Assembly: GCA_048938295.1 (NCBI GenBank)
Contig: JBHLMI010000045.1
Coordinates: 1 to 12,370, forward strand
Origin: Promethearchaeota archaeon
GTDB lineage: Archaea; Asgardarchaeota; Hermodarchaeia; Hermodarchaeales; Hermodarchaeaceae
Direction of reading: 5' to 3'
Length of the DNA: 12,370 nucleotides
This document shows positions 343 to 1,671 of the stretch, piece by piece (positions within the stretch are counted from its first letter, which is position 1; the number at the start of each line of letters is the position of its first letter). The position numbers were made by a program, and so were the translations under genes. The notes under the pieces were generated by a model that was not told the DNA's origin, ran no database searches, and was given only the letters and a program-made list of their open reading frames with translations.

Positions 343-356
343 TTGAGAGTACAGAT

Positions 357-369
357 TAGCAGAATCCTT
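357..369 (+). repeat. 13-bp direct repeat, left copy (TAGCAGAATCCTT)
   Basis: Exact match to 1656-1668, read directly. Followed by GGG at 370-372. Confidence 0.97.
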
Positions 370-373
370 GGGC

Positions 374-381
374 TTTTTATG
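374..381 (+). promoter_or_regulatory. TATA-like box (TTTTTATG) upstream of tnpB; could also be an oligo-T terminator for the Trm112-like gene
   Basis: Centred about 26 nt upstream of the GTG at 403, the spacing expected for a leaderless archaeal transcript. No Shine-Dalgarno before 403 and the adjacent BRE position is non-consensus. Confidence 0.35.
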
Positions 382-402: not shown

Positions 403-1641
403 GTGAAAGCTGGAAGTAAGTCACTAATTATCTATCGTGGATATAAGACGGAGTTGAAATTAAATAATCACCAGAGAAACCTTTGTAGAAGACACGCGGG
501 ATTTGCTAGGTTTGCTTATAATTGGGGTTTACAAAGGAAGATTGAGGAATATGAAAAAACTGGAAGCTCTCCCACTGCATTTACTTTGAGTAGGGAACTG
601 AACAGGCTTAAGCTTTCTGAATTTTCTTGGATGTATGAACTGTCAAGTCGTGTTCCCCAAGAAGCATTCAAAAATCTGGATTTCGCGTTCAACCAATTCT
701 TTCGTCGTATAAAAAAGGGTAAAAAACTAGGATTCCCAAAATTCAAAGCACGCAAATGTGGACTCGGATCCTTCCGGTTAAACGGAGTAATCCGTGTGTC
801 TGAAAATGTTATCCAATTGCCCCGACTTGGTAGGCTTCGGTTAAAAGAAAGAGGCTATTTACCCTCCGAGTCAAATCGGATACATATTCTTTCAGCAACC
901 GTCTCGGAGAAAGCAGGTCGTTGGTTTGTTTCCCTACAAGTTCGAGAAGAGATTTCTCCAGAACAAAGCAGTGGTCCAGTAGTTGGTGTTGATGTTGGGC
1001 TCCGCCATTTAGCAGTACTTTCTGATGGCACCTTCTTCGATAATCCAAAGGCATTGAGTCAGAAGGAACGGAAATTGAAGCAGGTACAAAGAAAGCTTGC
1101 AAAGAAGCTGCGTGGAAGTAATAATTATCAGAAGCTAAAACTCAAACTACAAAGAATCCATAAAAAAATTGCAAACATTCGAAAAGATGCTATTCACAAA
1201 ATAACAACCCGACTGGTGAAAACCAAATCAGTCATAGTTATTGAGGGACTTAATATTCGCGGACTAACGAAAAATCATTCAATAGCAAAGGCAGTTTCAG
1301 ATGCGAGTTTCCAAGAGTTTCGACGCCAACTCGAATATAAAACGGTCTGGTATGGATCTAATCTGATTATTGTGCCTTGGTCTTTTCCATCGTCAAAGCG
1401 ATGTTCCAAATGTGGAAAAATCAAGAAAGAGTTACCTCTATCTTCACGGATTTACGAATGCAAGTATTGTGGATTAACTATGGATCGTGATTTGAATGCT
1501 AGTAAAAACCTAGCATTAGTCGCCGCCAGTTGGTCGGAGACAATAAACGCTTGTCTAGAGGTGGGAGGTTACAGATCCATTGGATCAGTGCCCATCAATG
1601 ATGCAAGAACCGAACACCAATCAAAAAACTTGAAAGGGTAA
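403..1641 (+). CDS. tnpB: RNA-guided endonuclease TnpB (IS607-like), 412 aa
   Basis: N-terminal YKTELKLNNHQR...HAGFARFAYNWGL, PKFK motif, RuvC-I VGVDVG, RuvC-II VIVIEGL, zinc finger CSKC...CKYC, RuvC-III DRDLNASKNL. All three acidic catalytic residues present, no frameshift. Confidence 0.95.
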   Translation: MKAGSKSLIIYRGYKTELKLNNHQRNLCRRHAGFARFAYNWGLQRKIEEYEKTGSSPTAFTLSRELNRLKLSEFSWMYELSSRVPQEAFKNLDFAFNQFFRRIKKGKKLGFPKFKARKCGLGSFRLNGVIRVSENVIQLPRLGRLRLKERGYLPSESNRIHILSATVSEKAGRWFVSLQVREEISPEQSSGPVVGVDVGLRHLAVLSDGTFFDNPKALSQKERKLKQVQRKLAKKLRGSNNYQKLKLKLQRIHKKIANIRKDAIHKITTRLVKTKSVIVIEGLNIRGLTKNHSIAKAVSDASFQEFRRQLEYKTVWYGSNLIIVPWSFPSSKRCSKCGKIKKELPLSSRIYECKYCGLTMDRDLNASKNLALVAASWSETINACLEVGGYRSIGSVPINDARTEHQSKNLKG

Positions 1642-1671
1642 GATTCGGGCAACGGTAGCAGAATCCTTTTA
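1495..1671 (+). ncRNA. Predicted TnpB omegaRNA/reRNA: scaffold to 1655 plus guide from 1656
   Basis: Established: TnpB guide RNAs derive from the element's right end plus 3' flank and overlap the end of tnpB. Seen stems: 1495-1502/1510-1517 (8 bp), 1574-1578/1582-1586, 1561-1565/1591-1595, 1610-1614/1644-1648. The 5' and 3' limits are approximate. Confidence 0.7.
1656..1668 (+). repeat. 13-bp direct repeat, right copy (TAGCAGAATCCTT)
   Basis: Starts at the first base after CAACGG and is identical to 357-369. Confidence 0.97.

Follow-up and report, generated by a model that had tools for sequence, protein, structure and literature searches.

A 13-bp direct repeat around a segregating, putatively IS607-type TnpB-only element at the ribosomal protein L22 promoter of an Asgard archaeon

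Relationship of the element to described TnpB systems

In IS607 elements, TnpA_S requires a GG core and prefers TGGG, and CboTnpB requires the TAM TGGG and has a scaffold that ends in UCGG (bioRxiv 10.1101/2023.11.20.567912); for other IS607 TnpBs, the TAM is AGGAG or GAGGG (PMC11061315). In the homing of ISDra2 TnpB (IS200/IS605), the TAM and the right flank, joined in the empty site, form the target, and the occupied site is immune, the element having parted the TAM from the target. To our knowledge, IS607 elements are not known to duplicate their target, 0–2 bp being the most. Long-form tracrRNA, as Workman et al. 2021 are said to have found, represses the cas9 promoter through a partial match at which the active nuclease binds without cutting; it belongs to another protein family and is a dedicated and conserved RNA isoform with a conserved target, and nothing comparable is conserved at the locus described here. 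In the case of TldR proteins, RNA polymerase would be blocked by a guide that matches promoter DNA adjacent to a TAM (Wiegand et al.; bioRxiv 10.1101/2023.11.30.569447), and the effective guides are short, 9–16 nt (bioRxiv 10.1101/2023.11.30.569447).

The analyzed stretch of DNA (the window, 12,370 nt, contig C15:1-12370 of a 2.52 Mb genome assembly) contains a tnpB gene on the + strand (403–1641) that encodes a protein of 412 aa. According to the Pfam analysis, this protein has HTH_OrfB, OrfB_IS605, and Cas12f1-like TNB (zinc ribbon) domains. Its best solved relative is ISDra2 TnpB (PDB matches with E ~1e-66), and the TnpBs closest to it are encoded in Candidatus Hermodarchaeota MAGs, which places the host among the Asgard archaea. 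The RuvC motifs GVDVG, VIEGLN, and DRDLNAS align with those of ISDra2 TnpB, and the residues D, E, and D are all present, which confirms at the sequence level the intact nuclease proposed in the earlier note. The TATA-like box TTTTTATG (374–381, + strand), a feature found upstream of tnpB in every paralogue, is the putative tnpB promoter. Its spacing appears, for an archaeal promoter, well suited for a leaderless start at GTG 403, and we infer promoter function for it.

The region 1519–1655 (+ strand), which overlaps the 3′ end of tnpB, is predicted to be the omegaRNA scaffold. The paralogues in the same genome and the copies in 14 genomes of the same genus show 64–78% DNA identity. All 23 family copies compared end in ...GTTTCGG(A/G)CAACGG and diverge at once beyond it; in the window, this right end of the element (...CAACGG) occupies positions 1650–1655. 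In the alignment of the 23 copies, compensatory changes are seen in 20 of the 36 base pairs predicted for the 137-nt scaffold, which is kept also in many solo copies without tnpB, each with its own TATA-like box. The Rfam scan of positions 1–2400 (E up to 1) detected no family, RAGATH-18 included. Since the sequence at 1656 and beyond directly follows the family-wide end, the second copy of the 13-mer described below would open the omegaRNA guide; the position 1656 given for the guide start in the earlier note thus holds, the 23 copies sharing the right end up to 1655 and diverging after it. A T-run at 1667–1670 could end the omegaRNA early, and the guide match would then be nearly equal for the left copy of the 13-mer and for the empty allele.

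Judging by its sequence features, the element appears to belong to an IS607-type family, because the G-rich left flanks, the scaffold end ...CGG, and the resolvase beside bacterial relatives match the published IS607 biology. Ten left boundaries of family copies read RGGG|TTAAY, and the empty sites of paralogues read GAGG|, TCGG|, or AGGG| before the target. The copy in contig C33 has GAAGAGG|AG..., which according to the empty-site comparison can be read as AGGAG|; the copy in C7 has the empty site ...GTGTCGG| and reads ...TGTGGG|TTTAC when occupied; for the copy G011C49, ...TCAGGG|TTATTCAT... was found in the empty sites of six genomes. The genes of the bacterial TnpBs of the same superfamily (P0123, P0132, and P0135) lie directly downstream of a MerR-HTH/resolvase tnpA gene. 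As in IS607 elements (CboIStron TnpB; ISFba1 TnpB, PDB 8IAZ), RuvC is intact, the predicted omegaRNA lies over the tnpB 3′ end and ends in ...CGG, the guide corresponds to the right flank, and (T/R)GGG or AGGAG with a GG core borders the paralogues.

Unlike IS607 elements, the window element has no tnpA; its flank is AGAT, it is surrounded by a repeat of 13 bp (0–2 bp in IS607), and its TAM contacts are replaced. A GG core with a G-rich TAM at the left end was found in the paralogues C33, C7, G011C49, and G006C30 and was not found in the window copy, whose target-side flank, ACAGAT, is not G-rich. According to the profile search, neither its own genome nor the 15 genomes of the genus contain a serine recombinase (PF00239); the window copy is therefore regarded as a TnpB-only derivative. 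As for Y1 TnpA, it is absent from the own genome and present in one of the 15 genus genomes (G013:C208), where it is divergent beside the gene of a 379-aa TnpB of another family. This TnpA was rejected as the transposase of the element, the TnpB being different and no CAACGG-type end being evident at that locus.

Dozens of solo omegaRNA copies without tnpB (scaffold identity 76–89%) were noted in genomes of the genus (e.g., loci L085–L104), and the own genome has such copies at C3:29470-29768 and C39:18960-19121. Several solo copies combine the left motif RGGG|TTAAY with an internal TATA-like box. The solo copies look like MITE-like guide-RNA genes and would need TnpB in trans. In another species (G006:C30, ~64028-64291), the orthologous L22 promoter contains a solo omegaRNA element of ~265 nt that carries a TATA-like box of its own, CCTATAAAAGG; similar solo elements were also observed at loci L105, L114, and L119. 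The insertion point of the G006 element is a canonical GG located 7 nt upstream of the right junction of the window element, and the guide of the G006 element therefore also covers the ribosomal-protein promoter.

The direct repeat and the polymorphic insertion

The sequence TAGCAGAATCCTT is read on the + strand at 357–369 and at 1656–1668, and these are its only exact copies in the whole genome (2,519,385 bases searched); the chance expectation for further copies is ~0.07 genome-wide and ~1.5e-6 at a distance of up to 100 nt from the tnpB start. The left copy is preceded by ACAGAT (351–356) and followed by GGGC and then by the TATA-like box; the right copy lies between ...GGGCAACGG and TTATAG. 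The earlier note had described this as a 13-nt self-match of the guide at 357–369 with a mismatch beyond it, ACAGAT as the 5′ neighbor, a TATA-like box 4 nt past the match end, and a TGGG-like motif at 369–372. The window sequence agrees with all of this: the copies are exact and genome-unique, GGGC after the left one is opposed to TTAT after the right one, and the box does begin at 374. What that description of the guide start, the seed-side match, the nearby TATA-like box, and the intact nuclease missed is that the two copies form a direct repeat around an insertion. The TGGG (369–372, + strand), placed after the left repeat and before the TATA-like box, is a canonical IS607-type TAM/GG-core motif in view of the family flanks and published data (bioRxiv 10.1101/2023.11.20.567912).

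A generic promoter consensus as the source of the match was ruled out, as the 13-mer and ATCCTTTTATA each occur only twice in the genome. The only other ATCCTTTTATA (G000:C33:38215-38260) is preceded by CAGGG|ATTAGAC and has the appearance of a further left end from this element family. An exact 20-mer of the left junction had no match in the metagenome and genome collections searched, a set that possibly lacks the records of the source itself.

The two 13-mer copies bracket a 1,299-bp insertion (tnpB and the predicted omegaRNA) upstream of the core promoter of the L22 operon. Empty sites with a single 13-mer copy were found in seven genomes of the same genus and four metagenome contigs. In the seven genomes, the upstream gene adjoins the L22 leader, with one copy of a conserved block between them. 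This block, ..GA(C/T) TAGCAGAAT(T/C)(C/T)TT(A/T)TATAG.., is kept in all related loci and resembles a BRE/TATA core promoter, here that of the L22-S3-... operon. In the window, the left flank consists of the 3′ part of the upstream gene (1–342, + strand; a weak match to the Trm112-like zinc ribbon, Pfam PF03966, E 4.6e-4), whose orthologues adjoin the L22 promoter in relatives, and of the native spacer (343–356, + strand) ending in ACAGAT, which was delimited by empty-site alignments and a contig of run X1 (see below). On the right side, the predicted guide template (1656–1674, + strand) coincides with the putative BRE/TATA stretch of the ribosomal-protein operon. The initial 13 guide nucleotides, i.e., the right arm of the repeat (1656–1668), correspond in the empty-site comparison to the upstream half of the putative native promoter, and the left arm (357–369) is equal to guide positions 1–13. 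The block is followed by the conserved leader and the L22 gene (1675–2266, + strand; L22 at 1805–2266), which are contiguous with the upstream gene in empty alleles.

The L22 leader (1675–1804) is strongly conserved across the genus although non-coding (..GCTCTCAC(A/G)TTGTTTGGGAGTGCGGACCAG..GCAACC(T/C)GCAAAGTGAGTG..), which is consistent with a structured ribosomal-protein leader.

Both states of the site were observed in sediment sequencing runs. In run X1, an 86-nt contig with a depth of 7.6 joins position 356 to position 1656 with 13 ambiguous bases, and the occupied form is represented by a contig covering 324–1708 with a depth of 23.5. Thus, the occupied allele and a precisely empty one, in which the single 13-mer is preceded by the same bases (ACAGAT) as the left copy in the window, occur together in one sample at a ratio of about 3:1. 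Since the 13-bp repeat is shorter than the word length of the assembler, there must be reads that contain the empty junction. Runs X1 and X2 may be the source samples, which makes the evidence for the empty allele direct and not independent of the assembly. Contigs of runs X3 and X4 match the window at the junctions without differences (left junction in both, right junction in X3). The occupied allele is the majority form and is intact in four runs. The TnpB insertion is still polymorphic in the sediment population.

Some other variants were recorded in the same runs. A further X1 contig (depth 27.3) joins 1343 to 1519, with 175 nt inside tnpB missing, and probably represents a copy, related or deleted, that is present in the community. 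In run X2, a contig has 12 differences within 80 nt of the upstream gene (147–225) and differs in the rest of 117–2600 at position 1371 only, synonymously; this suggests that the patch at 147–225 was recombined between strains.

The 13-mer is single in empty sites and lies inside the native promoter; therefore, the self-match appears to be a duplication linked to integration and not an evolved operator. That it originates as a repeat flanking the insertion is nearly certain. The match being one arm of a repeat around a polymorphic insertion, its origin is structural rather than selected.

Origin of the repeat

The combination seen here, with a direct repeat at both junctions and one copy at empty sites, is the pattern of target duplication at a staggered cut. 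The element holds tnpB alone, and the genome yielded neither a Y1 nor a serine transposase. According to the scheme that we consider most suitable, a TnpB-only IS607-type element would have inserted just upstream of the L22-operon core promoter, and the native promoter 13-mer would have been duplicated either at integration or via recombination between a similar left end of the element and the promoter; we infer both routes. The repeat would not have been selected as an operator. The usual separation of the TAM-side flank from the target by the element would be lost, and ACAGAT with 13 seed-side nucleotides would end up 4 nt upstream of the tnpB TATA box. In this the locus would differ from ISDra2, as the duplication keeps the flank and 13 nt of the target joined.

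Several related schemes were considered. Staggered cutting by TnpB as the source of the 13-bp duplication was not adopted, since the published staggers are ~6 nt. A canonical IS607 empty site (13-mer-GG-13-mer) was not seen among the empty sites compared. Canonical insertion at the downstream TGGG (1678–1681) followed by rearrangements was also not adopted, as several extra events are needed.

A doubtful but possible alternative is that no target was duplicated by a staggered cut and the left copy is the element's own left end: a circle or another copy would have been integrated at the similar L22 promoter by Campbell-like or microhomology recombination, so that each junction retained the 13 bp common to both. 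Left ends of other family members (C3 and G010C10) are similar to the left copy, which may therefore be element sequence rather than a target copy. The pattern AGCAG.{0,3}AATCCTT occurs three times in the genome, namely, in the two window copies and in the solo left end in C3 after GGG|TTAA; in the local alignment of the C3 left end with the promoter, one of 300 shuffles reaches the score (p ~0.003), and G010C10 reads TGGG|AGCAGC followed by a TATA box. In G011C49, AGGG|TTATTCACAA stands against the target TTATTCATAA, with one copy in six empty sites. The solo element in G006 at the same promoter, 7 nt upstream, and the lack of an element transposase in the genus (serine recombinase in 0/15 genomes; Y1 in 1/15, beside a different TnpB) are also in line with this origin. 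However, 13 bases are very short for homologous recombination, most family members have no such similarity, and neither a circle junction nor a donor copy was found, the nearest relative having 72% DNA identity. The comparison of the L22 leader with the interiors of solo elements gave no significant homology beyond the promoter block.

As for other members of the family, the window copy is the only one with a significant flank repeat among the copies compared. Of 12 elements in which the left end was matched to the guide, the window copy agrees in 13/13 positions, G011C49 in 9/10, and no other matches; a family rule by which the left end equals the guide start was ruled out, nine of the 12 elements not exceeding the cross-pair background. 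The copy G011:C49, which is the closest relative of full length, has GGTTATTCA(C/T)AA on either side (667–678 and 2076–2087); its six empty sites have a single copy of the repeat, and the insertion is just downstream of the TATAAAGG box of a host gene.

TAM-reading residues and a possible action of TnpB on the left copy

The possible action of TnpB on the left copy depends on the TAM, which the earlier note had named as the deciding point. It still decides: the family flanks RGGG and AGGAG oppose ..GAT, and altered TAM contacts keep the latter alive. The contacts were mapped onto the window protein from the structure alignment with ISDra2 TnpB, in which Y52 and S56 contact -1T, Q80 -2A, K76 -3G, F77 and T123 -4T, and N124 -5T (PMC10097598). 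The equivalent residues of the window protein are A59, S63, S82, R83, Q86, L126, and N127. At these positions, all eight paralogues have A-H-K-C-Q-L-T, and the window protein has A-S-S-R-Q-L-N; the substitutions are thus H63S, K82S, C83R, and T127N, with A84V and L89F in the same helix. The window protein differs at 12 of 146 columns that are invariant in paralogues, and four of these 12 are among the seven contacts (hypergeometric P = 8e-4), with another two of the 12 situated in that helix. Among the 119 best homologues from a collection of 5.8 billion proteins, AHKCQLT is exact in 97, and Lys at the equivalent of K76, the -3-G reader, is missing only from the window's own protein; the near-invariance of the contact residues holds in 52 homologues from many phyla. 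Because four near-invariant contact positions are substituted, the family TAM cannot be carried over to the window TnpB.

Of the 233 proteins fetched, one other, P0121, shares both TAF.LS and SSRVPQ with the window protein. P0121 has 71% identity with a canonical IS607 TnpB, as against 54% with the window protein, and its element has no tnpA; being closer to the canonical TnpB, it would have acquired the same substitutions in parallel. P0121 (L215, 482–1600) is encoded in a JGI metagenome, and its 71%-identical relatives are canonical and lie beside a serine recombinase. In ISFba1 TnpB (8IAZ, TAM AGGAG), the equivalents of S56, K76, and F77 are S, S, and K, and this Lys reads the A:T pair at -2 (PMC11061315). 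The substitution pattern in the window protein suggests a shift in TAM specificity, not decay. By analogy, a GAT motif would be compatible with S63 and Q86, both as in ISDra2, and with R83, which is like the Lys of ISFba1. The left side of the P0121 element reads ..TTTGAGG|TTAAC and that of the window ..TTGAGAG|TACAG (343–354), and the comparison points to a GAG-type motif 7 nt from the 13-mer, with GAGAG (345–349, + strand) as an alternative TAM candidate. A TAM of the SSRV-type proteins was not derived from P0121, which is a single copy with no empty site, so that the boundary ..GAGG|TTAAC remains a motif guess.

The left copy is probably an inert by-product of the insertion (rough probability 0.65), since the ACAGAT flank does not fit the G-rich TAM inferred for the family, with the reservation that the TAM-reading surface is altered. 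The comparison with TldR is as follows. The guide of a TldR matches a promoter beside the cognate TAM. The left copy is a 13-nt match to the guide at a putative promoter, 4 nt from the TATA-like box; its flank deviates from the family TAM, and the window protein has altered TAM contacts. In contrast to TldRs, which have no RuvC residues, are located outside transposons, and have guide–promoter pairs conserved across loci, the window protein retains the RuvC residues D, E, and D, the element is an indel polymorphism, and the match is a one-off duplication, a guide–target match being found only in the window and G011C49 of the 12 elements.

Published data indicate that a match of 13 bases is borderline. 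In ISDra2 TnpB, a heteroduplex of ~12 bp is sufficient for cleavage, and double mismatches in positions 1–12 abolish it (PMC10097598); in ISFba1, single mismatches in positions 1–13 matter, and 20 nt works best (PMC11061315). The ISDge10 TnpB with a 10-nt guide binds and does not cut (PMC13507860), and Dra2 binds targets mismatched past position ~8 (PMC12803034). As ~12 bp suffices for ISDra2, a 13-nt match with a valid TAM next to it could result in cutting and not binding alone; such a match could lead to repression or to self-cleavage with repeat-mediated loss giving the empty allele. The left copy and the empty allele share ACAGAT on the TAM side, and autorepression and homing to the empty allele therefore stand or fall together.

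RNA-guided autorepression, as proposed earlier for this locus, is unlikely. It supposes that the TAM has shifted to ..AGAT and that a 13-bp R-loop at 357–369, formed without cutting, blocks the BRE/TATA region (367–381) and lowers tnpB transcription, while at the empty allele, where this TAM stands beside a longer match, TnpB cuts or binds. The uniquely changed contacts (H63S, K82S, C83R, and T127N, with A84V and L89F) speak for it, as do the identity of S63, Q86, and N127 to the ISDra2 residues reading the TTGAT TAM (PMC10097598), the GAT common to ACAGAT and TTGAT, and the parallel between R83 and the ISFba1 Lys at A:T -2 (PMC11061315). Parallel substitutions in the TnpA-less P0121 suggest a functional alternative module rather than decay. 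Moreover, RuvC is intact, the site is 4 nt from the TATA box, and short guides can bind without cutting (a 10-nt guide of ISDge10 TnpB, PMC13507860; 9–11-nt guides of TldR, bioRxiv 10.1101/2023.11.30.569447). On the other hand, all family flanks are G-rich, the left sides of P0121 and the window suggest a GAG-type TAM 7 nt off the 13-mer, and recognition of ~12 bp by ISDra2 implies that 13 bp could license cutting (PMC10097598); in addition, the feature is not conserved, most copies having no match between the left end and the guide.

An extended form of this scheme, which seems just as improbable, would have a TnpA-less TnpB re-tuned to the ..AGAT of the site at which it is stranded. Its guide, ended by the T-run (1667–1670), would hit both the ribosomal promoter of the empty allele, in a homing or addiction-like manner, and its own promoter as negative feedback, and the five parallel substitutions in P0121 would represent a recurrent “TAM switch” module.

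Very improbable is self-targeting instability, in which, with a valid TAM, TnpB would cut ~15–22 nt from the TAM in its own left end, the 13-bp repeats would anneal, and the element would be lost precisely. It agrees with the finding of both the occupied and the precisely empty allele (roughly 3:1) in the same sample, with published cuts at 15–21/21 nt (PMC10097598) and 16/22 nt (PMC11061315), which would fall between the repeats, and with the 12-bp heteroduplex being enough in ISDra2 (PMC10097598). However, it meets the same TAM problem as autorepression, the occupied allele is the intact majority form in four runs, and a recent insertion or spontaneous repeat-mediated loss explains the polymorphism equally well. 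Finally, a chance likeness of the flank and the upstream region, favored by nothing beyond the AT-rich promoter setting, has a practically negligible probability and is refuted by the uniqueness of the 13-mer, the two copies of which in 2.52 Mb stand exactly at both junctions of an insertion that relatives lack, by the empty sites in these relatives, and by the empty junction of X1.

Significance for the TnpB family

The most unexpected features of the locus are the 13-bp repeat around a segregating IS607-type TnpB-only element, as it appears to be, and the parallel replacement of TAM-reading residues. If the left copy is inert, the locus is a well-documented oddity, a transposase-less IS607-type TnpB element with a 13-bp repeat segregating in a natural Asgard population, and as a segregating TnpB-only element it is informative on the movement or loss of such elements. 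A TAM shifted to the local flank would make this the first natural case in which a nuclease-competent TnpB regulates its own promoter, and would exemplify TAM re-specification following transposase loss. The parallel SSRV substitutions offer a testable handle on how TnpB reads the TAM, which is relevant to the engineering of compact editors.
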